This document shows positions 5,055 to 34,632 of a stretch of 34,714 bases of DNA, piece by piece (within the stretch, counting starts at the first letter, position 1; each line of letters opens with the position of its first letter). The notes below the pieces were generated by a model. The model ran no database searches. It saw only the letters and a program-made list of their open reading frames with translations, and was not told the origin of the DNA. Source of the DNA: a virus (taxonomy: Duplodnaviria > Heunggongvirae > Uroviricota > Caudoviricetes); the IMG/VR virus record IMGVR_UViG_2740892487_000001. The stretch is one strand, 5' to 3'. The translations under genes were made by a program, and so were the position numbers.

Positions 5055-5957
5055 TCAGTAGTTATGTACTGAAGGAGGTAATTCTTTATTCTTAAGTCTC
5101 ATCCATGCGGAAAGATTCGTTGGTCCGTCTGGCTCATTAATATCAACATCTCGTGTGTGGTTTATTAAAACGTCTCTCGCCATTCCGATAACATACGAGA
5201 ATTCATGACCGTAGTCGTAGCATCTGCCGGAATAGTTCGATTGAATTTGTTTTAATGCCGGATACAGTTCGCGGAATAATGCCTGTGAGCGGTTGGCATA
5301 ATCCCATAGCCATACAAGGCTGTTTGCTTCTTTTGCAGAAAGCTCGTTGGTTTTCTTCTCTTGTTTGCCGATGAACTCGCCTTCAAGCACTACCCTGTGG
5401 ATGTACTCTACTGCTTGCGGTATCTGAGATGAATCAAGCTCTTCAATACTTTCCACGTTGAAACGCTGATGAATCATTGCATAAGCTTCTGGGTACATTA
5501 GATGCTTTTTGCTGACTAGCATATTTACAGCATCACGAAGCGGAGTCCTGTCATCAACAGATGTTTTCTTACGTGCATTTTCTGCCTTTCCCTTCGTCCA
5601 GTAGTCATGCAGCACAGTAAAGCATTCTTCCTGGTACTGAATCAGTTTATCGCGGATGTCAGCACGAACTTTCTCAGGGTTGATGCTGAACAGCCATCCA
5701 TTTAACTTCTTCAAAGGAAGGCAGAGTAGCCTACGAAGCTTACCATCAGCGGCAACCATGTTCATATGAACACAGTTGAATTTGCTAATCTGCTTCATGA
5801 GTTTTGTTTGCTGCGTTGACCAGCTCATTCCAAGGTTTTTAACGATTGGCTTCATCGCAACATATGCAACTCCGGCAGTCATGGCGGTGATAATCTGCTG
5901 ACCATTGAAAGGTACGTAAGAGGTGTTCACTGCTTCTAAAATTGCTATACTATTCAT
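5055..5957 (-). CDS. ant: Antirepressor Ant (P22 immI type; N-terminal part conserved, C-terminal half divergent)
   Basis: From the ATG at 5957: [39 protein letters not shown]..., recalled as the P22 Ant N-terminus; sits directly downstream of arc as in P22. Confidence 0.85.
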
Positions 5958-6025
5958 GTTGGTTTTTCTCCACGAATTTACTGACAACAGAAGCCCTGAC
6001 TGTTCCCGCAGTTGGGGCTTCAACT

Positions 6026-6187
6026 TTACGCGCCAATACGCCCTTCCTTCTTAAAGCTGTCCATTACTCTCTGATAAATCTCAGAGTTAACAGACCGACC
6101 ATTCTCTTCCGCCACCTTGCGTACCAAATCCAATACTTCTTTAGGCCACCGCAAATTGAACTGCGGCATTTTGCTCATTCCTTTCAT
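6026..6187 (-). CDS. arc: Arc repressor (ribbon-helix-helix)
   Basis: [53 protein letters not shown] is near-identical to P22 Arc as recalled. Confidence 0.95.
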
Positions 6188-6201
6188 GTTCACCTCACAA
6201 T

Positions 6202-6222
6202 ATAGGTCCACGGTGGACCTAT
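6202..6222. promoter_or_regulatory. Mnt operator (O_mnt), perfect palindrome
   Basis: ATAGGTCCACGGTGGACCTAT, recalled as the P22 mnt operator; lies between divergent arc and mnt. Confidence 0.85.
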
Positions 6223-6229
6223 TGAGAAT

Positions 6230-6250
6230 ATAGTAGAGTGCTTCTATCAT
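6230..6250. promoter_or_regulatory. Arc operator (O_arc) / Pant region
   Basis: ATAGTAGAGTGCTTCTATCAT, recalled as the P22 arc operator; immediately upstream of arc. Confidence 0.85.
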
Positions 6251-6277
6251 GTCAATACACTAACTTGGAGTGATGGC

Positions 6278-6532
6278 ATGGCTAGAGATGATCCGCACTT
6301 TAACTTCCGCATGCCTTTGGAAGTAAGAGAAAAATTAAAATACAGAGCAGAGTCAAATGGTAGATCAATGAACTCAGAATTGTTGCAAATCGTCCAAGAT
6401 GCTCTATCGAGACCATCTCCTGTAAAAGGTTATCGCAATGAAGCTGAACGATTAGCCGAGATGCAGGCTGAACAGTTCAAGTCTGTGGTATTTGAGACAC
6501 TTAAAAACATGTATGGCAAGGATGCAAAATGA
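6278..6532 (+). CDS. mnt: Mnt repressor (ribbon-helix-helix)
   Basis: MARDDPHFNFRMPLEVREKLKYRAESNGRSMNSELLQIVQDALSRPSPVKGYRNEAERLAEMQAEQFKSVVFETLKNMYGKDAK matches P22 Mnt as recalled. Confidence 0.95.
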   Translation: MARDDPHFNFRMPLEVREKLKYRAESNGRSMNSELLQIVQDALSRPSPVKGYRNEAERLAEMQAEQFKSVVFETLKNMYGKDAK

Positions 6533-6590
6533 TCGATTACAACCCAGCAAAAAAAAGAAATCATCGCAGCTAAAAAAGTGCCTAGAGCAG

Positions 6591-7112
6591 ATGAAATCAT
6601 CTACAAACCATGATGATTTTGAAATGCACTGGCGAGAATGTCTTGGGCATATAGAAAAGTCTTTCAGTAAGTTGCTCTGTGCAACAAAGCCGGTTAGTGG
6701 AAAATTTAGCAGCCACTTCAACCAAAAGTTCATGCTTAGAAAAACAGACAAAACACTTGCTTACCTTCACCAAGCAAGAAATGCTGATCATCATTCCACT
6801 ATGGAAATCTCAAAACTTGAACCTCCTTATACTACTCTTGGGGCATTTCCGGGAGCAAGAAGCCATTATATTAAAGAGTTAATCATTGATTCAACAGGGA
6901 AAATAGCAAAATACGAAGGCGACCCTATGATAGTTGAGTTTCATCCAGCAACAACTATGCCTATAACCGTAAGAAACCAAGGCAAAGATTATCCACCTCC
7001 AACAGAACATCTTGGCGAAAAGCTTGTTGATATACATCCATCTGTTCTTGCCTATCTCGGTATACAATTTTATGAAAAATGGATAGATGAGTCGTGTGCA
7101 ACGTTTAGATAG
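6591..7112 (+). CDS. Hypothetical protein, AT-rich cargo gene downstream of mnt (start uncertain; an ATG at 6529 overlaps the mnt stop but runs in another frame across an A8 tract)
   Basis: Long ORF 6492-7112 with a visibly AT-rich composition unlike the flanking phage backbone; no family recognised from sequence. Confidence 0.5.
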   Translation: MKSSTNHDDFEMHWRECLGHIEKSFSKLLCATKPVSGKFSSHFNQKFMLRKTDKTLAYLHQARNADHHSTMEISKLEPPYTTLGAFPGARSHYIKELIIDSTGKIAKYEGDPMIVEFHPATTMPITVRNQGKDYPPPTEHLGEKLVDIHPSVLAYLGIQFYEKWIDESCATFR

Positions 7113-7279
7113 TTATTTTTGATAATTTCAAGTATTTCCTCTTGACTTTGATTTACCCAAACGTGATCACACTCATGAAACCAGATTATGCTTCCTGTTT
7201 CGCCTTGTGCAATATAGGTGATCATGTTTTCATTAACAATTATTACTGAGTTATCATGTGCGCAATTTAGTTTTATCAA
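7070..7279 (-). CDS. Hypothetical small protein (69 aa), AT-rich, 3' end overlaps the preceding gene
   Basis: ORF only; no recognisable motif. Confidence 0.25.
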
Positions 7280-7341
7280 TTCGCATATCCTATCGTGACA
7301 AAGTAACTAGAAAAACTAAAGAGGTTGGTGTGTCTGATTCT

Positions 7342-7825
7342 ATGAGTTACGCTGTGCTAGTTGCCGCAACTCTATTTATGGGGATAGGGTTGCAGATTGC
7401 GTGGTTCTTTTTTTTCTAGTTTTATTAAACGCAAAAGAATTGAATCAAGGATATCTGAGATTTCTATTGCTATAGGGAAAAATGCTGAAAATCCAGAGAA
7501 TGAGGCCTGCGCACTGAATTACCTTAAAGAAAAGTTTTCCCCTGAAAAATTTGAAAATAGAATTACTGATGCTCTTGGATTGGTAATATCAGTAATTCAT
7601 ATGCCACTAAGTTTGCTGATAACAGTGTGGTACTTCGCCATGATCGCCGGAAGAATATTTGGTTTCATGAATATAGAGCCTGTAGTTCTTTGGGTTCCAA
7701 TGATACTGCAACTGTTGTTAAGCGTTGCTATCTTTATTTTTTCTGTTTTTATAAAAATTGTCTTTGGAAGATATCCCGGAGAAGCTAAGGGATTTAATAA
7801 AGAATTCATAAAAACTATAAAATAA
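7342..7825 (+). CDS. Putative inner-membrane superinfection-exclusion protein (SieA-like by position); frame broken at T8 (7408-7415)
   Basis: ATG at 7342 gives [24 protein letters not shown] and rejoins ORF 7397-7825 if the run is T7. Several hydrophobic segments; lies between the gp16 and mnt homologs where P22 carries sieA. Confidence 0.45.
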
Positions 7826-7847
7826 ATGCCGTCCTTGGCTTACAGTG

Positions 7848-9694
7848 CTACTGCCGGGTCGCTTCGTTAGCTAAGAGCGGGCGCACGGCAGTAGCAGCCT
7901 GATTTAGCGCTCTTTCATAAGCTGGCGTTCCAGCTTTAGTGTTTGCCAGACGTAAGAGCGCATTCCTTGCTGCTTTGGACTCATACAAACGCATCATTGC
8001 ACCGAAACCAGCCTCAAGCCCCATTGATACGCCAAGAGTCGCAGTTGCGCCAATCGTCCTTATCCTGTTGGCTTGAGATTGCCCCGTCTGAGTTACTACA
8101 TTTGCGGTGTCTGATCTTGCTGTTTGCTGTAGAACTTCATGAAGAGCATCAAGTTCTTTCATGTGCTTTCCAGAAAAAATAGTGTTGTAAATTTCACCGC
8201 CTGACTGAGATTTCAGCTTATTAACTTCCGTGATGAACTTGGCTGGAGAGTCACCGGCCTTTTCCGCTATTTTGCTGACGTAAGCTGCACGCATAGCATC
8301 TTTCCCTTTATCATCCAATGCGCTCCAGATTCGTTTCACGTCAGATGGTTTTCTGCTTAATACAACGGTATTTATAAGTTCAGGACTGGCTTCACTGTTT
8401 GCCTTGTTGAGCTTGTTAGCAATGTTTTTATTAAGCACCTTATTATAAACGTTTGCATAATCGGAATTTGCTTTAAGGTATTTTGCTGCGTCTGACGCAC
8501 CGAGGTTTTTTGCAACTGCGTTACGAAGGTCTTTTGACATTGCATTCTCTACCATATTGGTAGCTGCTTTTGCCTGGTTGGGGAAGACCATAGCATCTCC
8601 CTGAACATTAGATCTAAATGCTGTTCTGTGCTGACGCAATAGATCAAACGTAACATCCAAATCAGTTGCAGGGTTTGCTAATTCTTCACGTAGGTTACGC
8701 AAGGATGTAAGCAGGCTTTGATTGGCTGAAGTCCCAAGCCGTTCCTGTCTTGCGATCGCTGTATTCAGAGCATTCATGGTATTTGTGGTATCAACTGCGG
8801 CATTACCCATTTTATTGGTGACGTCATTGATAACAGCGCCAGCAGCATCCTTCCGCCCCCTTAACGTGGTGGTCAGAGATTTCACCACATCATCAGGGTT
8901 GTACTCACCAAAACGGTCAAAATAATTGCTTACCAGCTTACTACGCGTTGCATATTGCTCCGCTCGCTTTGAGCCTGTCCCGAGCAAAGCCCCCTCGGCA
9001 TCCTGAGTAAGGCCGCGAGTGAAAGCATTTTTCGGCGGGATAACATCAGATGTCATTGGTGTCACACCCATTGATTCTGAGGTGGCAATTTTTTTTTTTT
9101 CGCTACTTCTGGCGCGATATCGCCTTTTATAGCCGTTATTCCACGCCCTATTCCCTTTGCTGCTGCGGAAAGAACACCCTGAGCGGCAAGGTTAACTCCG
9201 GCATTTATGGCTGCATTTTGCGCGAAATCACCTTTCTGGTTTGCGGCTTCTGCCAGTGATCCAATAGCCATGCTTCCTGCCGTTCCAACTCCTGGAACTA
9301 AATACCCGCCAATTGTTTCTCCAGCTTGCGCATAAGGGTCTGTCGGTCGATCGACAGGGCGATAAACATCATCCAAAACCTTGGGACCACCAAGACCCTG
9401 GCTGATTGCATTAATCAGACTTGCGCCACCCTGCAATACGTCAAATGGTATGTTTACCAGACCACGACCAGCCTGCTCTGCAATTTGCCCTGCACTTTGA
9501 CCACCTGTGAGCCAATCGCCAGCTTGTTGCATCAATGATGGTTCTTCCTGTGTTGGTGCATTATTGGCCTGATTAACTGTTTGTTGCTGAACAGCCTGAC
9601 CAGCAAAATACTCATCAATGGCGGTGCCAATATCTTCGGTGCTCGTACCATCAGGAAAGGTAAATGTCTTACCGTTTGCAGTTACTTTCATCAT
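7848..9694 (-). CDS. Ejection (injection) protein gp16-like; frame broken at the T12 run 9089-9100 (A-run encoding KKKK on the coding strand)
   Basis: N-terminus [32 protein letters not shown] resembles P22 gp16; ORFs 9062-9694 and 7848-9071 join with a length change in the homopolymer. Confidence 0.8.
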
Positions 9695-11157
9695 TCCACC
9701 GTAAATTGAATGCCTGATTTTGAGGTATATGATCCGGATTGACTCTGCTGCGGTTGGGTATTTGTCGGTTGTTGGCTATTGCTCTGTTGTTGACTATTTG
9801 CAGCACTTGAAACCACCAAAGCATCATAAACGCGACCAGACTGACCACGTAACGAGTTATATTGGCCCTGCATTTTTCGCATTTTTGTTTCAGTAGCAGC
9901 CTTGGAATCACCGGGCTGAGGCAGGTACATTTTGGAATACTCCTGCATCTCTGGCAGAGTAATTGCTGCACCTGTTTCTGGGCGCAAAATTGCATACAAG
10001 GCGTCTCTCGCATTTACCATATATTGCTGCTCCGCTGGTGATAGGCTTAAATTTGCAATAGTCCCATCACCAAGAGAGCGATTTATTAATGCAACTCGCT
10101 TAGGGTCAATGCTTTTACTAAGCTGATTCATTGAGTCCATTGAATCTTTTAATCGCAAAGCAAATCCTGCCGCCTTCTTGGAACCCTCATTAGCCTTATC
10201 TATGATGCTTTGCGCTTGTGGCAAGCTAATTGGTTTAATGCCATCACCAGATATAGGTTGGTTTAGTTTTCCGGCTTCCTCGCTGCCATCGGTGTAATAC
10301 TTAGTTACCGAGCCATCAGGATTGGTTTCAACCTTAAGTAATTTCTTAGCATTGGGATTAATTCCCGCCGCTGCCGCAAATGCTGCTGCACCATCTGGAT
10401 CCGCCTTTAACATTTGCGCGTACTGATTGTAATTCTGCATTGCGGCTGTTGGTGCATATGCTGACGTTAACGCATTTGCTCGGCTAATATCCTGCCCTCT
10501 CGCCTGAAGTGCTTCGCTGGCCTGATTGCTGCGGATTGTCTCTGCCAGCCTGCCTCGGTCAATTTCACGACCAGCCATCTTATCCTGAACATTGAAGTAA
10601 TCAATCGGACCAAGCGCGGCCATTCCAAGGTGATCAACAAACTCACCAAATCCTGAAGGATTCTGCTGATACATCTGAGCAACGTTATTAGGGTCAACAC
10701 CGACGCGCGCCAGCTCATTGGCGTTGTTTTGCAGCCATGATTGCATTGCTTCTGGAGACGATGACGCAAGGCGTGCGCCAGCCGCTAAGGTGCCGATAGA
10801 ATTACGCTGATCTTCATCAATGAATCCCATGCCTTTACGAACGGATTCAATCTGGTCTGGATATTGAGTAGCCAACTGACGCAAAGCACCGCGATCACCA
10901 GACGCATAAGCATTAGCGTACGCCTGCTGAAATTCTTTCTGCCGCTGAGCCTGCTTTTCCTGCTGAAACACCCCTGCAATACCTGAAAGACCTTGCAAAG
11001 CAGTCAGCCCAACATTGTTAGCGCCTGAACGCTCAATATCATTGTTCTGCCTGATAAGCTGAAGCGTATTGCCGATGTCATTTACGCTCGGAGCGTTTGA
11101 GTTGACGCCGCCGATACCAGCTAACAATCCACCATTTGATCCTTGCCAAGTAGCCAT
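9691..11157 (-). CDS. Ejection protein gp20-like
   Basis: 488-aa ORF in the P22 gene-20 position between the gp7 and gp16 homologs; assigned by gene order and size. Confidence 0.75.
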
Positions 11158-11166
11158 GATTACCCC

Positions 11167-11858
11167 TTAAAACAACGAGCCAAGCAATCCGATACCAGCA
11201 CCAATGCCAGCGCCCCAAGGTGTTGATGTTCCCAAAAGGCTGGCAAGACCTGCACCTGCAATCGCACCAGACGTGCCACCGCTAATTGCAGTCTGAAGAC
11301 TTGATGGTTTATTGGCATTAGCAGCGGCAAGAGCTGCGCTTTGCTGTGCAATGCTGCTCATGTTGTTGGCGTACGTCTGCCCGGCGTTTGCCTGACCTTG
11401 CAGAGCACCAAGCCAATGTTTGCCAGATTGTTGTAGTTGCTCATCTGGTTCGACAACCACGACTGACCGAGAGTCGGGGCAATCGTGGCCAGTTGATTGC
11501 TTGTGGCTGTCGAGCCAAGTCCACCCGTCGCCTCCGCAGCAGCAAGACTCTGGTAACGCGCCTGACCTGCAAGGTCTTTATACTGCTGAGAGTTGTAATA
11601 CTGATTAAGTGCCTGCCCCTGTCCTTCTAAACTGGAAAGATTCTGAAGCTGGTTAACATACTGCTCCGCAAGCGGCGTGAACGGAGCAAGGTTTTTCATG
11701 ATCGTCTGCCACTGTTGATTTTGCAGGTCTGCGGCATACTTCTGAGCTTCTGCGGCATACTTTGCACTTTTATCAGAACTGCCACCTTTCCCGCCTTTTT
11801 CAGGGCAATAAGGTTCCTCGCCGCGCAGTTTTCTGCCCAGCTTAAATGCATATAACAT
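11167..11858 (-). CDS. Ejection protein gp7-like; frameshift near 11400-11420
   Basis: MLYAFKLGRKLRGEEPYCPEKGGKGGSSDKSAKYAAEAQKYAADLQNQQ... matches P22 gp7 as recalled; the C-terminal part (GALQGQANAGQTYANN...GIGLLGSLF) continues in a second frame, consistent with a missing G in a short G-run. Confidence 0.8.
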
Positions 11859-11860
11859 GG

Positions 11861-12319
11861 CTATCTCCCGTGATTCAGGAAGTCGATTAGTTCTTCGCGT
11901 GTGGCGCTGTAAAACGTCACGTCATCAACGCCTTTGAAGTATTTCTTGATGGTTCCTACACGCTTAAGGCCAATCATTGCGCAGTACATCTGACCGTGGC
12001 GGAATTTGCGTGCAGCGAACGATGTGACGCACTGAACAGTGGTGTTAGTCAGAATGTATCGCCAGAACGCCAGCCCGATTTCCTTGCTGAAGCCACGAAT
12101 CTCTGGCAGGTACATGGCGTGGCAATCGAATGTAAGCGGCTGAATCTCCTGATAGTAAACAATGCCGCCGAACTGCCCGTGCACGTTCACCTCAAAGTAA
12201 CGGCAATCAGGTTTGTAGTCGTATCCATCACCGTTGTTGCTCCCGGCAATAATGTCAGGGTGATTTCCGACTGCTTCGATCAGGTCGATGTTTCGCGTTG
12301 GTTTGAACTGAATCATCAC
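11861..12319 (-). CDS. gp14-like head/ejection assembly protein
   Basis: 152-aa ORF in the P22 gene-14 position between the tail needle and gp7. Confidence 0.6.
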
Positions 12320-13269
12320 TGCTCCGCGATTATCTTGATGGTTGTGGCAGTAAACGCCGCACCATTTGACTGAATGGTTAACGTGCTGCCATTTGTGGCA
12401 AGAAATCCGTCTTTATCCACGCTGAAGAACGTAGCTAACAGGATGTTGTCGGTTGTTGTCGCCGCATTACGACTGCTAACCAGTGTGTCAGGAACAGAGC
12501 CGGAAAAGGTTAGCTGCATTGATCTGTTAGCGGTTCCGCTGGGCCACGTCCCGACGATCGACAGCTTGAAGAACAAGGTTTTGTTCTCGTTGAACACAAC
12601 CATCTTGTTGTTAACGGTGTCGAAGAATGGTGCCAACGTTCCGGATGACGGCGTGAGCGTTTTCAGCAGGCTAACAAGGTTAGTCGGCGCTGTCGGGATG
12701 GTTACAGATACTCCTGAGTAAACAACCTCTGATTTCTTGCGCGTGGTGGCATACTCAAGCGCAGATATTCTTGTTGAGTGATCACCAACTGTGCTTTGTA
12801 GCGTCGAAATACTTCCTTCTGCCGCTGTGAGCCTGGTATCAAGTGCGTCGATATCGGTTGTATTCTGAGTTATGCGCGCATCATGGTTTGCTAACTCAGA
12901 TTCATTGGCAGCAATTCGCGTCTCGTGATCAGCCAGCTCTGTTTCAGCAGCCGTAATCCTTGTTTCATGATCTGCAAGAGTGCTTTCCGCTGCTGCAATT
13001 CTATGTTCATGATTGACGAGAGTTGCTTCAGCAGCTTCAATTCTGGATTCATGGTCTGCAAGGGTGACATCCTGCTCATCATTCTTCACCTGTGCATCAT
13101 AAGCCCCCTTCCCTGCTTCGTTGGCCTTGTTAGCCACGTTACCAACATCAGTGCCCTGTGCGATAACGTAAAGCAGATACGACTGCGAGAAGATATTGCG
13201 TGGAAGAACTGATGTATCGAGCCGCGTAGCTTGGATGATTACCGGCACATTGAGATTCGAATCCGCCAT
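12316..13269 (-). CDS. Tail needle protein (gp26-like) with extended coiled-coil heptad repeats and a C-terminal knob domain
   Basis: N-terminus [43 protein letters not shown]...[13 protein letters not shown] matches the P22 gp26 N-terminus as recalled; followed by repeated ADHE(S/T)RI...AAE motifs. Confidence 0.85.
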
Positions 13270-14687
13270 TACTCAATCCTTATCTGGCAGCCAGACAGAG
13301 TGACAGGTGACTTAGTGATAACGCGCAATTTGAAGCCAACATTTTTCCTGATGCGCCCTACTCGCTTCCACAAAACGCGTTTGTCGTAAACGAACGGTTC
13401 ATTCTGCTCAATCATCTGCTCACGACAGTAATTGATGCCATCAGTGGTTGCCGAGAGGAACAGGCGGTCGGCGTACTGAGCAACACCCGTCGATGATTCC
13501 ACCTCCAGATCAAAGCATCTGGCGTTATCTGCTTTGAAGAGTGGAGTAAACAGCAGGTGTTCTTGCTGTAGCCCATACTGGCTGCTGATATCGAACTGCA
13601 ATTTCCCGGTCACGGACTCCAGCTTATCGCCGCACGTTATCTGATTGCCTTCGTAAATGAAGTCAATGGCGCGGTACACATCGTCATACAGGCCTGTTTT
13701 CAGTACACACCATTGCGGAGCATTGGCGCTTGAAGATGCGTCGTACACCAGAACATGGCGCGGAAGATGGATAATCAGCAGCTCATGAGCATCAAAGCGC
13801 AACGATTCCATCACGCCATCAGCCAGTTCATCAGCAGTGTAGGAGCGGAGGATTTTCTCAATGCTCGCGCTGGCGATTGGTGACACCTGCCCGGAGCCGA
13901 TGATATACACAGACGGCGCACCTGTTGCCGGATTGCTGATGAACGCATACGAATCAGCAAACTGCGTTTTGCAGTAGGTTCCGGCAATGCCTTTCTGCAC
14001 CATCAGCGATGGCTGTGCGACATACAAAGCAGCACCAACGGTGGTTGCGCCAGTCAGGGAGAAATATTCAATCGTCGATGAACCAAAGCAGACGATGAAG
14101 TCTCGCCATGTTCCGATGCCGATGATACCGTCCGGCTGCGATTCTGCGCGATATTGTGCGCTGTATCGGTCAGGGTGCGATTCGTCTTCAAGGTCAGTGA
14201 TAAACCATGAATCAGTACCGTCTTTTGACCACGCATAACGCCCACGTAAGCGCGTAATGTCGCGAACTGAACCTAACTCGTACTGTGTGAATCCGCTGTC
14301 AGTAGGCCAGTTTGAGACGGTTTTAACCGTGCCATCATAGCGGTATTCGACCAGTTGACCATTAACGCCTACCGCCTGTGATGTCCTACCATGCGCCATT
14401 GATACACGACCACTTCCGGCGACGTCACCGACTTCGCTTTCACCCTTATACAACTTGCCACCGCAAACGCGATAAACAGCATTCTGCGCCATGTTGTACT
14501 CGACTCCGCGCGATACACCGTTCACATCAGAACGTTTGGCAATGCCCGGGAATGAGCGAAGATATCCGCTGCTGTTCAGGATTTCTTTGGGTGTAGCCAG
14601 CATATTCACTGGCAGATAGTCGATATAGTCGGCGTTTCGAAAGTCTTTGCCGACACCTTTCATAAGCGGAAGTTGCTGAATCGGCAT
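13269..14687 (-). CDS. Tail accessory protein gp10-like
   Basis: 472-aa ORF, the same length as P22 gp10, in the conserved position between gp4 and gp26. Confidence 0.8.
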
Positions 14688-15165
14688 TTATTCGCTCCCG
14701 TTATCGCAAGGTTCCTTCCGGTGGAAGTAATTCCAACCGTTCCACTTCGCCAACTGGTTACCACTACCAACAGGCATACGGTTTGGATAACCGGACTTAC
14801 ATTTAGCGGCTTTTGCTCTGTCCATTGCAGACAGTTTGACGAGTCGCTCTTTCCCGTATCTGGCAGTGGTTATAAGTTTTGCAGGCGCTTCCAGCGCATA
14901 ATCCGGTGCAATGCGGCAGGCAAGGTTGAAAATAACAGCATTGATAGCGTTATTTGATAAACCGTGCTCATCGCCCGGATCTGGAGCGACATCTGCATCA
15001 GCGAAAATGTAGCCAACGCTGATACCAGGTGACACATCACCGCCAAGCCATTCAGCCATCATCATTTCAAGGTCGTTGACGCCGTCTTCCATAGACTGCG
15101 GTTCGACATCGGTTAACGTGGCATTTGATGCCACACCGAGCTTACGTAATGCTGCAAGGACTAAA

Positions 15166-15188
<23 letters not shown>
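14688..15188 (-). CDS. Tail accessory / head-completion protein gp4-like
   Basis: From the ATG at 15188: [33 protein letters not shown]... matches P22 gp4 as recalled. The upstream (SQ)n extension in the track ORF is the alternative frame of the hexamer repeat. Confidence 0.85.
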
Positions 15189-24703: not shown

Positions 24704-24897
24704 TAAAAAATCCCGAAACCGTTATGCAGGCTCTAACTATTACCTGCGAACTGTTTCGGGATTGCATTTTGCAGACCTCTCAGCCTGCGATGGTTGGAGT
24801 TCCAGACGATACGTCGAAGTGACCAACTAGGCGGAATCGGTAGTAAGCGCCGCCTCTTTTTATCTCACTACCACAACGAGCGAATTAACCCATCGTT
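24704..24897 (-). ncRNA. Lambda-type 6S RNA (pR' leader transcript terminated at tR')
   Basis: Span from the predicted pR' start to the tR' hairpin (CCCGAAAC...GTTTCGGG + T-run at 24704-24760) is about 194 nt, matching lambda 6S RNA; sequence matches lambda as recalled. Confidence 0.7.
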
Positions 24898-24932
24898 GGG
24901 TCAAATTTACCCAAGTTTATTCAAAAAGTCAA
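24897..24932 (-). promoter_or_regulatory. Late promoter pR' with overlapping Q-utilisation (qut) region
   Basis: Minus strand TTGACT (24927-24932), 17-bp spacer, TAAATT (24904-24909); flanking sequence matches lambda pR' as recalled. Confidence 0.85.
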
Positions 24933-24974
24933 TATCATGCCGTTAATATGTTGCCATCCGTGGCAATCATGCTG

Positions 24975-25598
24975 CTAACGTGTGACCGCATTCAAAATGT
25001 TGTCTGCGATTGACTCTTCTTTGTGGCATTGCACCACCAGAGCGTCATACAGCGGCTTAACAGTGCGTGACCAGGTGGGTTGGGTAAGGTTTGGGATTAG
25101 CATCGTTACAGCGCGATATGCGGCGCTTGCTGGCATCCTTGAATAACCGACGCCTTTACATCTTCCGCACTCTTTCTCAACAACTCTCCCCCACTGCTCT
25201 GTTTTTGCTATATCAACTGCCCGACCTGTTCCGTGGCAATCTCTGCATCTTGCGCTCGGCGTCGCGGCACTACGGCAATAATCCGCATAAGCGAATGTTG
25301 CGAGCACTTGCAGTACCTTTGCCTTAGTATTTCCTTCAAGCTTTGCCACGCCACGGTATTTCCCCGATACCTTGTGTGCAAATTGCATCAGATAGTTGAT
25401 AGCCTTTTGTTTGTCGTTCTGGCTGAGTTCATGCTTACCGCAGAATGCAGCCATTCCGAATCCGGCTTGTGATTGCGCCATCCCCATAGCAGCCATCACA
25501 TCAGTACCGGAAAGAGAGTCAGAAGCCGTAGTCCGTGGTGAGTCGCTCATCATCGGGCTTTTTGGCGAATGAAATTTAGCTACGCTTTCGAGTCTCAT
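24975..25598 (-). CDS. Q: Late antiterminator Q (lambda type)
   Basis: MRLESVAKFHSPKSPMMSDSPRTTASDSLSGTDVMAAMGMAQSQAGFGMAAFCGKHELSQNDKQKAINYLMQFAHK... near-identical to lambda Q as recalled, including the CRDCHGTG...CGRCKG zinc motif. Confidence 0.95.
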   Translation of the reverse strand: MRLESVAKFHSPKSPMMSDSPRTTASDSLSGTDVMAAMGMAQSQAGFGMAAFCGKHELSQNDKQKAINYLMQFAHKVSGKYRGVAKLEGNTKAKVLQVLATFAYADYCRSAATPSARCRDCHGTGRAVDIAKTEQWGRVVEKECGRCKGVGYSRMPASAAYRAVTMLIPNLTQPTWSRTVKPLYDALVVQCHKEESIADNILNAVTR

Positions 25599-25783
25599 CG
25601 TCTTCCCTTCTTGCCCTGTTTGACCATCAGGACGCCGTTAACTATTACGTGACGCTCGCCTTTGCTGTCTCGGTTGTACTTGAGCACTGTTCCTCTTGCG
25701 CAGGAAAGCATCCTCGCCACTTCGGTCTGATTGCCTCGTGTCTGGATAAGAAGCTCTGGTATCGTTTGAATTGTGGCGTTCAT
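25595..25783 (-). CDS. ninH: NinH-like protein
   Basis: MNATIQTIPELLIQTRGNQTEVARMLSCARGTVLKYNRD... resembles lambda NinH; directly upstream of Q. Confidence 0.75.
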   Translation of the reverse strand: MNATIQTIPELLIQTRGNQTEVARMLSCARGTVLKYNRDSKGERHVIVNGVLMVKQGKKGRR

Positions 25784-26142: not shown

Positions 26143-26429
26143 GGCTTAATCTTCCCCTCCTTCAGCAGTATCGCCTGCGTCCTGATCACGCCTTCGAGGT
26201 GGTAAAGTCTGGCGTCTTTGTTGTCGAGAATCATTGTGCGTCGGTCGATTTCATCGTGACACGCGCTACAAGCCCATGCGCCGATCAGGTCGTCAGGCTT
26301 CATTCCAGTTCCGCAAATTCCAGCCATCCGGTAATGTGCCAGAACTGTAGTTTCAGGATTACCATTGCATACGCCGTAAATACGTACCTGGCATTCTCTG
26401 CCGCGCGCTTCTTTGCGTAGGTTAACCAT
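26139..26429 (-). CDS. YbcO-like small Cys-rich protein (DUF1364-type, putative nuclease)
   Basis: 96-aa ORF with a Cys/His cluster (CNGN...CSACHDEIDRR), immediately upstream of rusA as ybcO is in DLP12 by recollection. Confidence 0.6.
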   Translation of the reverse strand: MVNLRKEARGRECQVRIYGVCNGNPETTVLAHYRMAGICGTGMKPDDLIGAWACSACHDEIDRRTMILDNKDARLYHLEGVIRTQAILLKEGKIKP

Positions 26430-27153
26430 TAAGCAGCCTCTCCTGTTACTTTCAGCATTCCGTTATCGAGCAGCTTTCTGGTCAGCCACTGTTGGCCACG
26501 TCCGGTGATTTTTGTAGTGAACGATATCTGTATTCCGTGATTTGTGTTGACCGCTGTTTCTTTCACTGTGAAATAGCCGCGATCCATATATTCCTGCATT
26601 GGCACATTGCGCCGGGAACCTGAAGCAATAAGGATTTTGTGATCGCGCATCCACGCAAACAGTTTGTTTGGACCAATACCAACAACCTTTGCAAAGTTTC
26701 CAATCAAAATTCCGCTGGCCTCGCCAACGCGATCGGCAAACTCAACTTTAGGTGCGGCAATTGCGAGCTGGTTTTCCAGTTGCATTTTCTGCTCAGCAAG
26801 ATCAGCAGCAAGGCGCAACGCTTCTGGTAGCGTTTTTGGGATATTAACCGCAGTTTCTTCAAGCTCTCGCCAACGGTCAACAAGACGAGCGGTGAATTCC
26901 GGCGACAACTGAGCGACGACAATAATGCTGTCTCGCTTACCTTGTTCGCCCTCAAAAACGTAAGCCTCTACGCCACGAAGTAATCCTAAGTTATTGATTT
27001 TTTTTCGAAAACCACCATTGGGGGATTTCGGATCACACCTCGAGCCGCCAGTCGTTCAATAGATTGTTTCACCTTGTCATGACGACTTCCCACCAACTCA
27101 GCGATTTCAATGCTTGTCATTTTGATGGCATTGCCATTTATTAACTCACTCAT
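26429..27153 (-). CDS. Rha-family regulatory / antirepressor-like protein; frame broken at T8 (26998-27005)
   Basis: N-terminal MSELINGNAIKMTSIEIAELVGSRHDKVKQSIERLAARGVI (Rha-like); the C-terminal part continues in ORF 26429-26908 and is restored by a 1-nt length change in the run. Confidence 0.6.
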
Positions 27154-28781: not shown

Positions 28782-29047
28782 TGCTTCATCTCCCTTTCCA
28801 TTTCATCAATGTCAACGTCATCAGGAAGATGGGAGCAATACGCCGCTATACCATGATGATTTATCTCATACCCTTTGAACGTTACCATCTGGCGCGTAAT
28901 CTCAACTTCGTTCAGGAATCCGTCATCGCATAACTGCCTGGCTATTTTCGATTTGGTCTGGATTATTGGTAGTGCCTGTTCTTTCAAAGCGCATGATATT
29001 TGTGCATCCCATGCCTTTTCGAGAATGGCTAATTGTTTTTTATTCAT
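28778..29047 (-). CDS. Hypothetical protein (89 aa) downstream of the helicase
   Basis: ORF coupled to the helicase stop (overlapping TGATG). Confidence 0.5.
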   Translation of the reverse strand: MNKKQLAILEKAWDAQISCALKEQALPIIQTKSKIARQLCDDGFLNEVEITRQMVTFKGYEINHHGIAAYCSHLPDDVDIDEMEREMKQ

Positions 29048-30483
29048 CAGAATCCTCCTTTCTTCTTGGACTGCGGTTCCTCGCGTTCACGGCGGCGCAT
29101 TTCAGCAGACTGTTGGTCTGTGTCATAAATAGCGCCATTTGCCTGAATGCAGTACACCGTGCCGGTATTGCCATGACGATTGAGACGAAGGATTAGTTCA
29201 GTTTCACCAGGTGGAACACTGTCATCAAAAGCGCCTTCACGATGGATCCCGACCCAATAATCGCAATCCTGTTCAATCTGCCCTGTATCTCGTGAGTCAC
29301 TTGGTAATGGGCGTTTATTGGTTCTGCTTTCCAGTGCGCGGTTAAGCTGCGTCAGAAGCACAACAACGCAATCAAGCTCTTTGGCAAGGTTCTTCAGTCC
29401 TTTGGTGATCATGCCGTAAGCAAGGTCGTTGCGATCGGCCTTCTCAGCGGTCATTAGTGTCAGGTAATCGACCAGAATCATGCCAACACATCCTTTTTCT
29501 CGCTTGATTCGACGGCTTTCGCTGACGATTTGAGCCAGAGATAATCCCGGCGTGTCGTCGATGTAAAGCAGGTCGATTTCACTCAAGCGATTGGCTGTTT
29601 CGATCGCCCTGTTGAAGTCACCATCGTAATCACCCTGATAGCCGTCATCGGCGTCATTTGTCGCCGGAAGGTAAAAAAATATTCGGGTTAACACCAGACT
29701 TCTGCCCTACCAGTTTTTCCAGTATCTGGTCACCTGGCATTTCAAGGCTGAACATCAGAGCTGGCTTTTTCTCATGCACTGCGCAGTTGATTGCCATCTG
29801 GCTGTATAGCGTCGTTTTCCCCATCTTAGGGCGAGCGCCAATGACAAACAGAGAGCCTTTCACCAGCCTTTCGGTGACAGCATCCTGTCCAGCGATGGGA
29901 TCCCTGTGCTCATTACTCGTTGTTCGCCTGACGGGTCAAATCGCTTCTCAAGGTCGCTAACCCAGTCTTCCATGACCTCACCAAATGAGCGAAGGCCGCG
30001 ACGCGATCCGGTTTTTGCATGGTCTGTCAGTTGCGTGAAAATCGCCTGAATAGCTTCGTACTTCTGCGTTGCAGTCATTCCGTTGCGGGAATAGAGCAAT
30101 TCCGTCGCTTCAGTCATGCGGTTGATGGCGTAGCGTTCCATTGCGGTTTCACGAACCTGCATTGCATAGGCAACGATGTTTGCTGCGCTTGGCGTGTTCT
30201 TTGCGATCTCAGCGATATAAGCAAAACCGCCAACAGACGCCGTTAACGATTTGCGCTCCAGTTCATCGAAAAGCGTCAGCCCATCTACTGGCTTTTGCTC
30301 CCGGTGCATTCTGGTTATTTCTTCGAAAAGGATTTTGTGTGGTCGGCTGTAAAATGAATCGGGCTTCAGCATCGCCAGAACTTTCTGGACGCGCTCACTG
30401 CTGTCATCATCCAGAAGCAATCCACCAATCACCGCCTGCTCAGCCTCGATGCTATGGGGCGGCGCATAAAAATTATCGGTCAT
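29047..30483 (-). CDS. DnaB-family replicative helicase; frame broken near 29860-29870 and at A7 (29673-29679)
   Basis: N-terminal PPHSIEAEQAVIGGLLL; Walker A GARPKMGKTT; downstream IDDTPGLS...ILVDYLTLM. The three ORFs 29860-30498, 29654-29863 and 29047-29694 are collinear pieces. Confidence 0.85.
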
Positions 30484-31363
30484 CGTGTTCACCCTCACGA
30501 ACTTTCAGGTAGGTATTATCGTTAAGCAGGAAATCAAATCCCTTTTTGTGCCAGACGGTTCCGCGTTGATGGTTTGGGCGTTCTTCGAACATCCATCGGC
30601 AATTTTCGCCTACGTAGCTCAAATAATTTCTCCAGTCCTGCATCGTGAACCCATGCCCGTCAAGCTGGCGGGTTATCACTCCGGCTTTGCGCCAGAACGT
30701 TCGGATCTGGTTTTTACGCTTGTCATTCAGTGCGCGGATTCTTGGCGCTTCAGGAAGGATTTCGTGGTAAGCATCGACAACATCCTGACAGCTAACGGAA
30801 GGTTTTTTCTTGTCAGACTTTTTGTCTGCTGTGGCACTCTCTAATACGTCAGTATTAGAGATATTATTTATATTATTGTTTATGGACAACCGTTGGACAA
30901 CCGTTGGACAATCTCCGCTGAGAGCCGCGCCATTACTGGTGTTTGCGTTGGACAACCGTTGGACAACCGTTGGACAATTTTTTGCCTGAAAATCGTCATA
31001 TTTAACGATTGTAAACAGGCTAAATTTCTTCCCCATCGAGCAAATATTAAGCATCCCTTTCGACTCAAAAGTCCGTAATAAGCTCCGAACTTTGTTGTCG
31101 GGGATGAATGTTTCTCTGACCAGCGACGGGCGTCCAGTTATCATCTGACCGCGATCAACAGTTATCGGACCGATATCCGTATTGACGACAGTAGATTCGT
31201 GATTAGCCTTGAGGATTAAGTGAAGCCAAAGATGTACTGCCTGAGAGTCCTTATAGAGCCTGCTGTCCATAAACTGGCGGTGTATAGAGACATACCCCAT
31301 ACTGGATGCCTCCTGATGTTGTACAGGGTTATGCCTGTAATCAGCTAACTTAACGACGCCCAT
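30473..31363 (-). CDS. Replication initiation protein (O-like function; the origin iterons lie inside the gene)
   Basis: Position between cII and the helicase; the iteron arrays encode a repeated CPTVVQRLS segment inside the ORF. Confidence 0.7.
   Translation of the reverse strand: MGVVKLADYRHNPVQHQEASSMGYVSIHRQFMDSRLYKDSQAVHLWLHLILKANHESTVVNTDIGPITVDRGQMITGRPSLVRETFIPDNKVRSLLRTFESKGMLNICSMGKKFSLFTIVKYDDFQAKNCPTVVQRLSNANTSNGAALSGDCPTVVQRLSINNNINNISNTDVLESATADKKSDKKKPSVSCQDVVDAYHEILPEAPRIRALNDKRKNQIRTFWRKAGVITRQLDGHGFTMQDWRNYLSYVGENCRWMFEERPNHQRGTVWHKKGFDFLLNDNTYLKVREGEHDDR
30850..31010. repeat. Replication origin: two arrays of 11-bp iterons (CCGTTGGACAA) flanked by AT-rich DNA
   Basis: TGGACAACCGTTGGACAACCGTTGGACAAT at 30883-30911 and again at about 30947-30978, with AT-rich sequence on both sides. 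Confidence 0.8.
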
Positions 31364-31511
31364 GTTTCACTCCTGCTTTGGCTAGTCTGTAAACACCAAC
31401 AAGGCGCTCTGCGAACGCCCTGTTATTTGCTGCGGCTACCACTAATCCCTCAGGTGAATCAGGGTGTCGAATCTCTTCTTTTTCCTGGTATTTCTTACGA
31501 CGTTTTGTCAT
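31350..31511 (-). CDS. Hypothetical small basic protein (53 aa) between cII and the initiator
   Basis: MTKRRKKYQEKEEIRHPDSPEGLVVAAANNRAFAERLVGVYRLAKAGVKHGRR; ORF only. Confidence 0.3.
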   Translation of the reverse strand: MTKRRKKYQEKEEIRHPDSPEGLVVAAANNRAFAERLVGVYRLAKAGVKHGRR

Positions 31512-31543
31512 AATTACTCCTGTGGATTGATCCAGTAATTCCC

Positions 31544-31840
31544 TCAGAATTGCATATCAATTTGCTCAGAATCCTCGGTGGCAGCCGGGGATTTTTTCTT
31601 TGTGATTCCATCCAATGCATACTTAAAAGCCCTGCTAATCGGACTGATGTCTGATGCCATTCCGAAAGCACACAAGACCGAAGCAATAAATCTCCAGTCC
31701 GTTCTGCTTATCTTCGATTCATGACAGCCAATCATCTTTGCCAGACCGCGCTGGGTAAGCGTTGACAGGTTGATGAGTAAATCAGTTTCAGCGCGATCAA
31801 TTTCTCGCTGTGTTGGCTTGCTATAACTTGCTTGTGTCAT
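31544..31840 (-). CDS. cII: CII-like transcriptional activator
   Basis: C-terminus KKKSPAATEDSEQIDMQF parallels lambda CII (KKRPAATERSEQIQMEF as recalled); HTH segment LAKMIGCHESKISR. Confidence 0.8.
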   Translation of the reverse strand: MTQASYSKPTQREIDRAETDLLINLSTLTQRGLAKMIGCHESKISRTDWRFIASVLCAFGMASDISPISRAFKYALDGITKKKSPAATEDSEQIDMQF

Positions 31841-31922
31841 TTGTTAATTTTCCAATAGTGAATAGTTAGTTGAAAGGTATGCGTGGAAACGCATATGGCC
31901 TTAGTTGGTCAGATATCTTGGG

Positions 31923-31971
31923 GCTCGCTTTGTCAGCGACGTAGGACGAATGTCCATTGTGAAAAGAGCGG
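31923..31971 (-). promoter_or_regulatory. nutR: boxA-like CGCTCTTTTCACA and boxB-like hairpin GTCGCTGACAAAGCGAGC
   Basis: Located between cro and cII on the pR transcript; boxB resembles the P22-type GCGCTGACAAAGCGC. Confidence 0.6.
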
Positions 31972-31977
31972 TGTTAC

Positions 31978-32188
<211 letters not shown>

Positions 32189-32198
32189 TTAGTACAGG

Positions 32199-32272
32199 CA
32201 ACCATTATCACCGCTAGAGGTAAAATAGTCAACACGCACGGTGTTAGAAGTTTATCCCTTGCGGTGATAGAT
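32199..32272. promoter_or_regulatory. OR1-OR2-OR3 with divergent pR and pRM
   Basis: TATCACCGCTAGAGGTA (32206-32222), CAACACGCACGGTGTTA (32230-32246), TATCCCTTGCGGTGATA (32253-32269) match the lambda OR half-site pattern; pR -35/-10 sit on the minus strand. Confidence 0.85.
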
Positions 32273-32276
32273 TTAA

Positions 32277-32995
<719 letters not shown>

Positions 32996-33026
32996 TTGTT
33001 TTATTTTTCACGTAATAGGATGATTT

Positions 33027-33368
33027 ATGACACAATTTCAACTTGCATTAATCGCTAGAGAAGTTGATGGAGAAGTCATCCATCTTCGCACCAAAGACGG
33101 ATACATCAATGCCACCGCGATGTGCAAGTCTGCGGGGAAGCTACTTGCTGACTATACACGACTAAAAACAACACAAGATTTTTTTGATGAATTATCACGC
33201 GATATGGGGATTCCCATATCGGAGTTAATTCAATCATTTAAAGGCGGAAGAGCAGAGAATCAAGGGACTTGGGTTCATCCAGACATCGCAATTAATTTAG
33301 CTCAGTGGCTATCTCCAAAATTTGCAGTGCAAGTATCGAGATGGGTGCGTGAGTGGATGTCAGGTTAA
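33027..33368 (+). CDS. KilA-N domain protein, in the position occupied by rexA in lambda
   Basis: 113-aa ORF directly downstream of cI on the same strand; sequence is consistent with a KilA-N/APSES-type DNA-binding domain (judged by eye, low certainty). Confidence 0.6.
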   Translation: MTQFQLALIAREVDGEVIHLRTKDGYINATAMCKSAGKLLADYTRLKTTQDFFDELSRDMGIPISELIQSFKGGRAENQGTWVHPDIAINLAQWLSPKFAVQVSRWVREWMSG

Positions 33369-33404
33369 AGAGCGCCTGCCGAACTCCCTATCCACCTTAA
33401 GCGG

Positions 33405-33787
33405 TATATGACAAACCGAGGCAGAGTTCCTCATACGCACTTTTCTATGCTTAATGAACTGACGTTTAACTTGGTTGCGCCACTTGAACAGGCCGGATAT
33501 ACGCTGCCAGAAAAAAATGGTCCCTGATATTTCAGAGGGTAGGGTTTTCTCGCAATGGCTCCGTGACAACCGGGGGGTTGAGCCGAAGACATTCCCAACA
33601 TATAACCATGAGTACCCAGATGGCCGGACATTCCCGGTACGTCTATACCCAAACGAATATTGCAGATTTCAAACAATACTTCAACGAAGTGTGGCTGCCT
33701 CAGTACGCTCCTAAATATTTTGCTGAACGAGACCAAAGGGCATTGACGTTGATTGAGAAAATCATGCTACCTGACCTTGATTCCTAA
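33405..33787 (+). CDS. Hypothetical protein downstream of the KilA-N gene, same frame as it; frame broken at A7 (33511-33517) and again near 33640
   Basis: ATG at 33405; coding-like sequence continues through three frames (…PDISEGRVFSQWLRDNRGVEPKTFPTYNHEYPDGRTFPVRLYPNEY / ADFKQYFNEVWLPQYAPKYFAERDQRALTLIEKIMLPDLDS) and ends 9 nt before a terminator. Confidence 0.45.
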
Positions 33788-33795
33788 ATGTTATT

Positions 33796-33822
33796 CCCGG
33801 CCACAGAGCCGGGTTTTCTTTG
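33796..33822 (+). terminator. Intrinsic terminator ending the cI operon (t_imm-like)
   Basis: CCCGGC-cacaga-GCCGGG followed by TTTTCTTTG. Confidence 0.75.
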
Positions 33823-33973
33823 CCTCACGATCCCCCTCACCCAAGAACACATAACCAATTGTATCTATTTGAAAATAAATAGATACAACTCACTAAACAT
33901 AGCAGTTCAGATCTCTCACCTACCAAACAATGCACCCCTGCAAAAAATAAATTCATATAAAAAAACATACAGA

Positions 33974-34037
33974 TAACCATCTGCGGTGATGAATTATCTC
34001 TAGCGGTGTTGACATAAATACCACTGGCGGTGATACT
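33974..34037 (+). promoter_or_regulatory. OL3-OL2-OL1 operators and pL promoter
   Basis: TAACCATCTGCGGTGAT, TATCTCTAGCGGTGTTG, TACCACTGGCGGTGATA; -35 TTGACA (34009-34014) and -10 GATACT (34032-34037), matching lambda pL as recalled with a few substitutions. Confidence 0.85.
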
Positions 34038-34105
34038 AAACACATCAGCAGGACGCACTACTCACCAGGGCGGTGAATATACAACGATTCAAATATGAAT
34101 CTACG

Positions 34106-34120
34106 GCGCTGACAAAGCGC
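34106..34120 (+). promoter_or_regulatory. nutL boxB hairpin (P22 type)
   Basis: GCGCTGACAAAGCGC between pL and the N-like gene. Confidence 0.65.
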
Positions 34121-34248
34121 AATAACCAAAGTGAACTTTGGGGTGAATGCAGAAGCTAACCTTCTCGGCGGAGGCGCTTTGCAATGATTACGCTACCGGA
34201 GTTAGTCGCCCGGCTGTATTCACCGCCAAAGTTCACCAGGAGGTCTAT

Positions 34249-34632
34249 ATGACACGCAGAACTCAGTTCAAAGGCAATTCACGTTCTCGTCGTCGTGAGC
34301 GTTTAAAGGCAAAGGCATTAGCTAACGGCGTACTGGCCCGCGAAGAAGCAATAAGTTCAGAAGTATTACACCGCCCTACTCTAAGCAGAGCGCAGATTCA
34401 GGCTAAAGGTACTCACGAAACGCCTGAGCGCATAGAAGACGCTAAGCCAATTAAGTTCATGGCACAGGACGTGATCTGGCAACAGAAAGAATACAGACGC
34501 AATCTGGAGAGAGCGGCCATTGTGTACGCGAATGAGTTTGGACATAAGCAACCAGAAACTGGTGTATGTCTTCCAAATGTAGCTCTTTACGCAGCAGGAT
34601 ACCGGAAATCAAAACAACTGACGGCGAGATGA
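34249..34632 (+). CDS. N-family antiterminator (P22 gene 24-like C-terminus, not lambda N)
   Basis: AGGAGG 6 nt before the ATG; arginine-rich motif GNSRSRRRERLKAKALA; C-terminus LPNVALYAAGYRKSKQLTAR resembles P22 gp24 as recalled. Confidence 0.7.
   Translation: MTRRTQFKGNSRSRRRERLKAKALANGVLAREEAISSEVLHRPTLSRAQIQAKGTHETPERIEDAKPIKFMAQDVIWQQKEYRRNLERAAIVYANEFGHKQPETGVCLPNVALYAAGYRKSKQLTAR

Follow-up and report, generated by a model that had tools for sequence, protein, structure and literature searches.

A probable P22-like prophage of Escherichia that combines a lambda-type immC region with a complete P22-type immI region

How would lysogeny be governed in a temperate phage that carries two immunity regions, one of lambda type (immC) and one of P22 type (immI), and do both really belong to one phage? 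The question is raised by the IMG/VR virus record IMGVR_UViG_2740892487_000001, a stretch of 34,714 nucleotides (hereafter, the window), in which a preliminary description, made from the letters of the sequence, recognized both regions between positions 5055 and 34632. The window corresponds to the whole draft contig LAWZ01000048.1 (assembly GCA_001631005.1), with 0 differences over the 22 kb compared. We aligned it by local blastn with lambda (NC_001416), P22 (AF217253), HK620, Sf6, mEp234 and APC_JM3.2. In our reading, to which we assign a probability of roughly 0.85, the window represents most of a P22-like (Lederbergvirus-type) temperate prophage, an ordinary lambdoid mosaic in which an immC of lambda type is found together with an entire immI of P22 type, and the frameshifts that interrupt many of its genes are errors of the assembly.

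Judged by its sequence, the immunity core is of lambda specificity, as CI, Cro and all six operators are of lambda type. Window 31964-32996 matched lambda 38255-37226 with 95.9% identity over cro, OR1-3 and cI, and the match stopped 1 nt past the cI stop codon. A second match, of 91.5%, between window 33796-34076 and lambda 35824-35550 covered the end of rexB, OL3-1 and pL, and lambda homology faded approximately 25-40 nt past the pL -10 box, upstream of nutL. These ends are where the preliminary description had placed its recombination junctions, directly after cI (32995) and shortly past the pL -10 box. OR1, OR2 and OR3 with pR and pRM occupy 32206-32269 (plus strand), OR2 and OR3 being identical to those of lambda and OR1 having one mismatch; OL3, OL2 and OL1 with pL occupy 33975-34037 (plus strand), with OL1 identical and one mismatch in each of the other two. 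Thus, half of the six operators match lambda exactly and the other half differ at one position each, with unchanged spacing.

The description of cI, cro, OR and OL as lambda-like holds, but it overlooked the frameshifts in cI and cro. As written, cI (32280-32995, plus strand) is split over three frames, and its open reading frame stops after 117 codons owing to an additional base in a T6 run (32596-32602) and another in an A6 run (32683-32689). When these two homopolymer bases are removed, a CI protein of 237 amino acids results, of which 232 are identical to lambda CI. Only T3A and K71N of the five substitutions (T3A, K71N, R129K, D139N and S157Y) fall within residues 1-92. Conservation extends to the QSGVGALFN helix, to the AG cleavage site and to the C-terminal domain, as befits a repressor with the DNA-binding domain of lambda CI and a LexA-like cleavage domain. 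At the codon level, cI differs from that of lambda by 19 synonymous and 5 non-synonymous changes. Similarly, cro (31978-32179, minus strand) contains an A7 run expanded to A8 (32054-32061); the corrected Cro (66 amino acids) is identical to lambda Cro at 64 positions and differs at 2, and cro is intact in a 99.6%-identical relative.

The second immunity region is a P22-type mnt-arc-ant module, as had been proposed, with window 4986-6459 matching P22 at 87.4%. The ant gene (5055-5957, minus strand) is intact and encodes an antirepressor of 300 amino acids, 86% identical to P22 Ant, for which the Pfam domains P22_AR_N and P22_AR_C were found on the identical protein in relatives. The arc gene (6026-6187, minus strand; 53 amino acids) specifies a protein with 51 of 53 residues identical to P22 Arc. 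Across the arc-ant junction lies the sar antisense RNA (5958-6025, plus strand), recognized as Rfam RF00262 with 91 bits (gathering threshold 43; E = 2.7e-18). It was the sole match in a scan of the window at the Rfam gathering thresholds; 6S, oop and the nut sites were without a match there, so we located such elements by alignment to lambda or P22. Alignment to P22 also placed Omnt (6204-6220) and Oarc (6230-6250) in the divergent Pant/Pmnt promoter region (6204-6250, minus strand). This control region is identical to that of P22 at 128 of 131 positions. The earlier statement that both operators are intact applies fully to Oarc, which is identical, and nearly so to Omnt, in which the central base pair is inverted with no other change. 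The Mnt protein (mnt, 6278-6532, plus strand; 84 amino acids), like Arc a ribbon-helix-helix repressor, is 76% identical to that of P22, with the first 13 residues identical.

Both immunity regions are accompanied by the P22-like morphogenesis genes that the preliminary description had noted. The late genes of the prophage are on the minus strand, and window 7312-21868, which includes sieA and the morphogenesis genes, matched P22 at 75-79%. The P22-type block 3-2-1-8-5-4-10-26-14-7-20-16 (7848-21841, minus strand) is colinear with P22 and APC_JM3.2, and the E. coli P22-like phages APC_JM3.2, IME10 and HZ41 are 96% identical to the structural region. The Pfam families P22_portal, P22_CoatProtein, P22_Tail-4, P22_gp7, Phage_P22_gp16 and Head_binding were all found, either in the window or in identical relatives. 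Artefactual indels occur in this block in gene 16 (T7 to T12, 9089-9100), gene 7 (11412) and the large terminase gene (20309-20315). A different kind of length variation was seen in a small open reading frame upstream of gene 4, where a tandem repeat of the hexamer GGCTCT (15256-15293) differs in copy number among relatives, being 12 nt longer than in the window in one, 6 nt longer in another and 6 nt shorter in APC_JM3.2; it looks like a natural in-frame variable number tandem repeat.

Late control and most of the lysis functions are of lambda type. Window 23278-25605 matched lambda 46235-43878 with 93.7% identity, over Q, pR', qut, 6S, tR', S, R and the 5' part of Rz. The Q late antiterminator (24975-25598, minus strand) is 98.6% identical to lambda Q and 95.2% to P22 gp23. 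Downstream of it, pR' (24904-24932), qut, the 6S leader and tR' (24705-24763) were placed within 24703-24932 (minus strand) by alignment to lambda 44490-44800; the interval from pR' to tR' shows approximately 5 mismatches in 300 nt, with two mismatches in pR'-qut and a tR' hairpin identical to that of lambda. In the lysis gene cluster S, R, Rz (23089-24306, minus strand), the S and R products are lambda-type (99% amino acid identity). Within Rz, the DNA match to lambda breaks off at 23278; the Rz product shares 90% identity with P22 gp15 and 58% with its lambda counterpart, values that rule out a lambda-like Rz for most of the gene. The proposal of a lambda-like Q, pR'/6S/tR' and S-R-Rz was therefore correct from Q to R and has to be amended for Rz, which is P22-type. 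The roi gene (26429-27153; a Rha/ANT-domain gene encoding 240 amino acids in HK620) is split, which an artefact in a T8 run (26998-27005) explains in part.

The antitermination system has yet another origin. N (34249-34632, plus strand; 127 amino acids) belongs to Pfam PF25694 with 58.5 bits (cut-off 27.9), the family to which P22 gp24 is assigned with 152 bits, whereas lambda N belongs to PF11438; to speak of a P22-type N analog is fair at this family level. Nevertheless, it is 99% identical to mEp234 N and 30% identical to P22 gp24, and its similarity to gp24 is limited to the arginine-rich motif and the last approximately 25 residues. As there was no blastn match to P22 past 28781 and protein identity was only 30%, we rejected N as a true P22 gene 24 orthologue and assign it to the mEp234/HK97 type. 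The P22-type nut sites proposed with it withstood the comparison better: nutL boxB GCGCTGACAAAGCGC (34106-34120, plus strand) is identical to P22 boxB-left. The nutR site lies at 31925-31970 (minus strand), with boxA CGCTCTTTT (31962-31970) and a P22-type boxB TCGCTGACAAAGCGA (31925-31939) that has the same GACAA loop as P22 and a U-A closing pair. The window contains 2 matches to P22-type boxB, as compared to 0.07 expected by chance. Between pL and nutL boxB we found no boxA-like sequence, while P22 nutL has CGCTCTTTAAC. The right-hand boundary of lambda homology falls within nutR boxA, a conserved element at which recombination may have joined the lambda-type core to the P22-type boxB.

If these parts work as their homologs do, CI would repress pL and pR in the lysogen through the lambda-type operators, while Mnt, made from Pmnt and bound at Omnt, would shut off Pant, so that no Ant would be produced. 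N would act at the P22-type boxB sites and Q at the lambda-type qut. Upon infection, Pant would fire briefly, before Arc and sar RNA shut down ant. Should Mnt control fail, or should Ant be supplied by a superinfecting relative, Ant would bind CI non-covalently, and the prophage would be derepressed. The two-layer lysogenic control, by CI and by Mnt/Arc over Ant, that the preliminary description proposed is a reasonable inference from this gene content. A functional link of the immI Ant to the lambda-type CI is plausible as well; P22 Ant is reported to inactivate not only c2 but also the repressors of lambda and phage 21 (Susskind & Botstein 1975, cited by PMC3121763).

The main live rival to this view accepts both modules as intact and differs in what immI would do. 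In P22, mnt is needed to hold Ant off in lysogens, and the window has conserved the full set of Mnt, Omnt, Arc, Oarc and sar, which argues that Ant has to be tightly restrained. The rival holds that immI is a moron, the Ant of which acts mainly in trans on the repressors of other prophages, as a mediator of prophage cross-talk, or that the module chiefly regulates read-through of the late operon into the tailspike gene. It can draw on the observation that Ant is not needed for P22 induction, lysis or lysogeny, and on prophage cross-talk as its proposed role (PMC3121763). Moreover, no part of the late operon is more fluid than the ant region, for which a role in tailspike read-through has been suggested (PMC2629481). 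We found the full immI in just 103 of 5,426 complete E. coli genomes. The action of P22 Ant on lambda repressor reported in PMC3121763 speaks against this explanation, as does the conservation of the whole control apparatus, and we consider it rather improbable, although it deserves the most attention of the three alternatives.

The second alternative concerns the frameshifts. In the deposited sequence, breaks affect cI, cro, P, the large terminase gene, the genes of gp7 and gp16, sieA, orf193, the HNH gene, the 3' end of the tailspike gene, the acetyltransferase gene and the gene downstream of cI. If this were real, the window would represent a decaying cryptic prophage without working CI, Cro, helicase, terminase and injection proteins, in which there would be no immC function and no two-layer control. 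The sequence as it stands, with at least 20 indel events in at least 12 genes, would fit such decay, and the lineage does show some: a nonsense mutation and a 2-bp deletion in a bstA-like gene are common to independent assemblies, the related prophage of E. coli strain 81 has a 23-kb internal deletion, and there is an insertion sequence (IS) element at the left end of the window.

The pattern of the changes argues otherwise. Relative to near-identical sequences, the window contains approximately 20 indels, of which 18 are homopolymer expansions and 2 are single-base deletions; they map to 980, 1345, 2615, 4749, 6556, 6577, 7415, 9096-9100 (+5), 11412 (-1), 20315, 23037, 23088, 27005, 29679, 29866 (-1), 32061, 32602, 32689, 33517 and 33965. 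Over the 29.6 kb from 235 to 29872, the otherwise identical metagenome scaffold ERZ28601831 scaffold_32 differed from the window by 1 substitution and 15 indel events, namely 13 homopolymer expansions (one of them T7 to T12) and 2 single-base deletions, with no homopolymer contraction. The same picture emerged from a JGI scaffold over the 22 kb compared (7705-29872). In the comparison of 31473-34651 with the complete genome of E. coli 1008S19, in which cI and cro are intact, there were 9 substitutions and 5 homopolymer expansions by one base. Among unsubstituted runs, 6 of 17 runs of 6 and 2 of 5 runs of 7 were lengthened as compared to relatives, but 0 of 30 runs of 5, and no run of 6 or more was shortened. 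Changes that are one-directional, dependent on run length, confined to expansions in runs of at least 5 and in one case as large as +5 bear the signature of a sequencing technology and not of neutral decay. Furthermore, if CI were truly lost, kil and N would be derepressed, with toxicity to the host as the expected result, and the 19 synonymous versus 5 non-synonymous codon changes point to purifying selection on cI. The other frameshifted genes are also encoded intact in relatives. Taken together, these comparisons indicate that the frameshifts are homopolymer-length errors of the draft assembly and that the underlying phage is probably intact; we regard real decay of these genes as very unlikely. 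The identities of the modules can be read directly from the alignments; the phage would be viable, and its Ant would act on its CI.

The weakest alternative, that the contig is an assembly chimera of a lambda-like and a P22-like prophage joined via shared nin, Q or lysis sequence, so that no single phage would have both immunity regions, can appeal to the long near-identical segments that lambdoid prophages share, to the draft state of the assembly and to the lack of a 100%-identical independent reference across 29872-31473, but is hardly credible given that colinearity with the window extends over 235-29872 in scaffold_32 and over 7705-29872 in the JGI scaffold, which are independent metagenome scaffolds, that mEp234 and Sf6 are colinear with it over 29044-31536 and mEp234 over 29044-32991, that a lambda-type cI and mnt-arc-ant lie within one argW prophage in the complete E. 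coli YA-1 genome, and that strain 81 joins window 9152 to 32144 in one prophage, as expected of a deletion derivative.

Several points nonetheless weigh against our reading of the window as an intact prophage with two-layer control. As deposited, cI, cro, P and the genes of gp7, gp16 and the large terminase are interrupted, and their intactness is inferred from relatives, not from reads; moreover, 29872-31473 lacks an identical reference. The disruption of roi may be real, since this gene is called in two pieces also in the clean metagenome scaffold. The contig does not include int and att and has an IS element at its left end, which bears on excision competence. As to the control circuit, Ant here shares 86% of its residues with P22 Ant, and that it acts on this CI is a prediction. 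Additionally, Ant is dispensable for the P22 life cycle (PMC3121763), and immI may add little to the control of its own phage's lysogeny.

How unusual is the combination? In the phage-isolate collection, no record covers at least 80% of either half of the region, so that no single phage described there is collinear with the whole; the mosaic of immC and immI described earlier was thereby borne out. A full mnt-arc-ant was present in 43 phage records, all of Salmonella phages, and a full lambda-type cro-cI in 36 (lambda, HK97, mEp and HK wild phages, SfI and PhiR5_2), with no overlap between the two sets. Among bacterial genomes, however, the pairing recurs, and its novelty had been overstated. 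In E. coli YA-1 (NZ_CP137162), a complete prophage at argW unites virion genes of P22 type and mnt-arc-ant (99.5%) with a cro-cI of lambda type; its BstA-like gene is intact. Like YA-1, ij001 and EC_T6 have both modules in one full-length argW prophage. Strain 81 (NZ_CP088131) retains both in a deleted remnant, and O111:NM strain 14614 probably carries the pairing, too. Clearly, the pairing of lambda immC with immI is real but not unique, with at least three complete E. coli genomes having both in one full-length argW prophage. Additionally, the junctions fall at known hotspots around cI: PMC8585504, citing Degnan et al. 2007, describes the cI-N interval as a mosaic hotspot.

The strain 81 prophage is a remnant with an insertion in sieA in addition to its 23-kb deletion. 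The genome sequence of this strain (NZ_CP088131.1) showed an error pattern of its own with respect to the window and other relatives, GGCC/CCGG being changed to GGTA or deleted, which suggests methylation-context errors of long-read sequencing.

Among the nearest systems, P22 and epsilon34 share with the window the order of morphogenesis genes and the immI module between gene 16/sieA and the tailspike gene (87% nucleotide identity to P22 and 96% to epsilon34 in immI), and the boxB, the Pfam family of N and the gp15-type Rz are also P22-like. Unlike in these phages, the immC of the window is lambda-type and not c2/P22-type, the structural genes are 75-79% identical at the nucleotide level, the tailspike receptor domain, replication genes and O-antigen modification gene are different, and the host is Escherichia. 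With lambda, in turn, the window shares cro-OR-cI and OL-pL (92-96% nucleotide identity; CI 98%, Cro 97%) as well as Q, pR', qut, 6S, tR', S and R (94% at the nucleotide and 98-99% at the amino acid level), but it has no rexAB, its N and nut sites are of the P22 family, its O, P and cII are unrelated or distant, its virion module is that of a P22-type podovirus throughout, and immI is added. The wild phages of lambda specificity HK97, mEp234, HK106, HK544, HK244, HK542, CL707 and mEp332, together with PhiR5_2, are 96-97.5% identical in the cro-cI core. The wild phages have a variable cI-OL interval and the same N (99% to mEp234) and boxB as the window, and PhiR5_2 has the same block of cI, BstA-like gene, OL and nutL at 97%, but all of them are siphoviruses or of other non-P22 morphotypes, and none has mnt-arc-ant. 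Further close counterparts are the argW prophages of YA-1, ij001 and EC_T6 and the strain 81 remnant, with P22-like virion genes, mnt-arc-ant identical at 99.5-100%, and lambda-type cro-cI and BstA-like gene at 97-99%. YA-1 differs from the window in replication genes, nin genes, Q (phage 21-type), tailspike, gtr genes and the intactness of its BstA-like gene.

The BstA-like gene lies in the cI-OL interval, where rexAB is absent and only the end of rexB matches lambda, from 33796. In its place there is a gene of the BstA family of abortive-infection genes (KilA-N + BstA_C; 33027-33787, plus strand), recognized by its homology to PhiR5_2. The intact PhiR5_2 homolog (253 amino acids; 97% nucleotide identity) matched phrog_6287 BstA (1.8e-82), PADLOC BstA (2.5e-20) and Pfam KilA-N. 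In the window the gene is interrupted by TAA at 33366 and has lost 2 bp at 33660, and it contains an artefactual additional base at 33517. As the first two lesions are common to strain 81 and 1008S19, they are real, and the gene is a dead pseudogene, although it is intact in phage PhiR5_2 and in E. coli YA-1. Its position agrees with that of bstA genes known directly downstream of cI (PMC8585504).

The replication genes O (296 amino acids) and DnaB-like P (29047-31363, minus strand) are 97-99% identical at the nucleotide level to those of mEp234, Sf6 and HK620. P has 478 amino acids in relatives, with artefactual indels at 29679 and 29866 in the window, and O is 20% identical to lambda O. These genes and cII are of the mEp234/Sf6/HK620 type, neither lambda nor P22. 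Neighbor walks with O and with an 89-amino acid nin-region protein, each of which occurred in more than 4,500 collection blocks, returned unrelated mosaics only.

Adjoining mnt, orf193 (6529-7112, plus strand) overlaps it by ATGA and, corrected for artefactual additional bases at 6556 and 6577, encodes 193 amino acids. Its product matched phrog_23516 (function unknown), with no Pfam or PADLOC match. Coupled to mnt in translation, orf193 is probably expressed in the lysogen from Pmnt, which makes it a candidate lysogeny-expressed moron or defence gene. Next to it lies a sieA-like superinfection exclusion gene (7258-7825, plus strand; 188 amino acids in relatives, artefactual additional base at 7415) that matched phrog_7745 (SieA-like) at 1.2e-108 and, in relatives, Pfam SIEA. 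On the other side of immI, an HNH homing-endonuclease gene (4435-4945; 169 amino acids after correction), which is not present at that position in P22, separates ant from the tailspike gene and is encoded on the strand opposite to them.

Window 338-4393 forms a serotype-conversion and receptor arm. The tailspike gene (2401-4393, minus strand) encodes a P22-type head-binding domain (Pfam PF09008, 1.2e-64) and a pectate-lyase-like receptor domain, 648 amino acids in relatives. An artefactual additional base lies at 2609-2615, and the corrected reading is open; a look-up of the exact protein returned no match, the window copy being frameshifted near its 3' end. The OafA-like O-antigen acetyltransferase gene (AT3 + SGNH; Pfam PF01757 and PF19040; 338-2340, plus strand) is split into three frames in the window by artefacts at 980 and 1345 and is intact in relatives (666 amino acids). 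Below approximately 3970, the arm had no match in the six reference phages, and the best listed E. coli genome matches began at approximately 3970-4008, while identical copies of the arm were found in several E. coli draft or metagenome contigs.

The first 234 nucleotides of the window are not prophage but the end of an IS903-family insertion sequence that forms the contig boundary. This segment finishes with CGATTTATTCAACAAAGCC, the reverse complement of GGCTTTGTTGAATAAATCG, which we take to be the IS903 inverted repeat (terminal inverted repeat at 216-234). Three near-identical relatives, strain 81 among them, part from the window exactly at 235, so the contig breaks at its left end because of the IS element. 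This element abuts the promoter side of the acetyltransferase gene, where the relatives have integrase-proximal sequence; in near-identical relatives the same left arm runs on into the integrase gene, tRNA-Arg (argW), yfdC and mlaA.

As a natural counterpart of the classical lambda-P22 hybrids, the window is a case of textbook lambdoid mosaicism, a further modular exchange at the hotspots flanking cI, with little significance beyond cataloguing. The laboratory lambda immP22 hybrids (Botstein & Herskowitz 1974) reportedly established that lambda and P22 can exchange immunity modules without loss of function, and that a heterologous genome can accommodate immC and immI working together. They have P22 immunity in a lambda chassis; the window is the natural reciprocal, a lambda immC in a P22 chassis. 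It also holds a lesson in data quality: uncorrected, cI, cro and the helicase, terminase and injection genes would be called pseudogenes by an annotator, and an apparently intact prophage would be labelled defective. Tentatively, and with odds that we place somewhat below even, the comparisons may point to a wild E. coli P22-like lineage in which a CI of lambda specificity is naturally under a P22-type Ant held by Mnt, so that 'lambda immunity' would depend on a second, independently exchangeable repressor specificity. If this is true, such lysogens and any co-resident lambda-immune prophages might be inducible in trans by superinfecting relatives, without SOS. In either case, the lineage offers a convenient natural system in which to ask if Ant and Mnt influence a lambda-type CI in E. 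coli.

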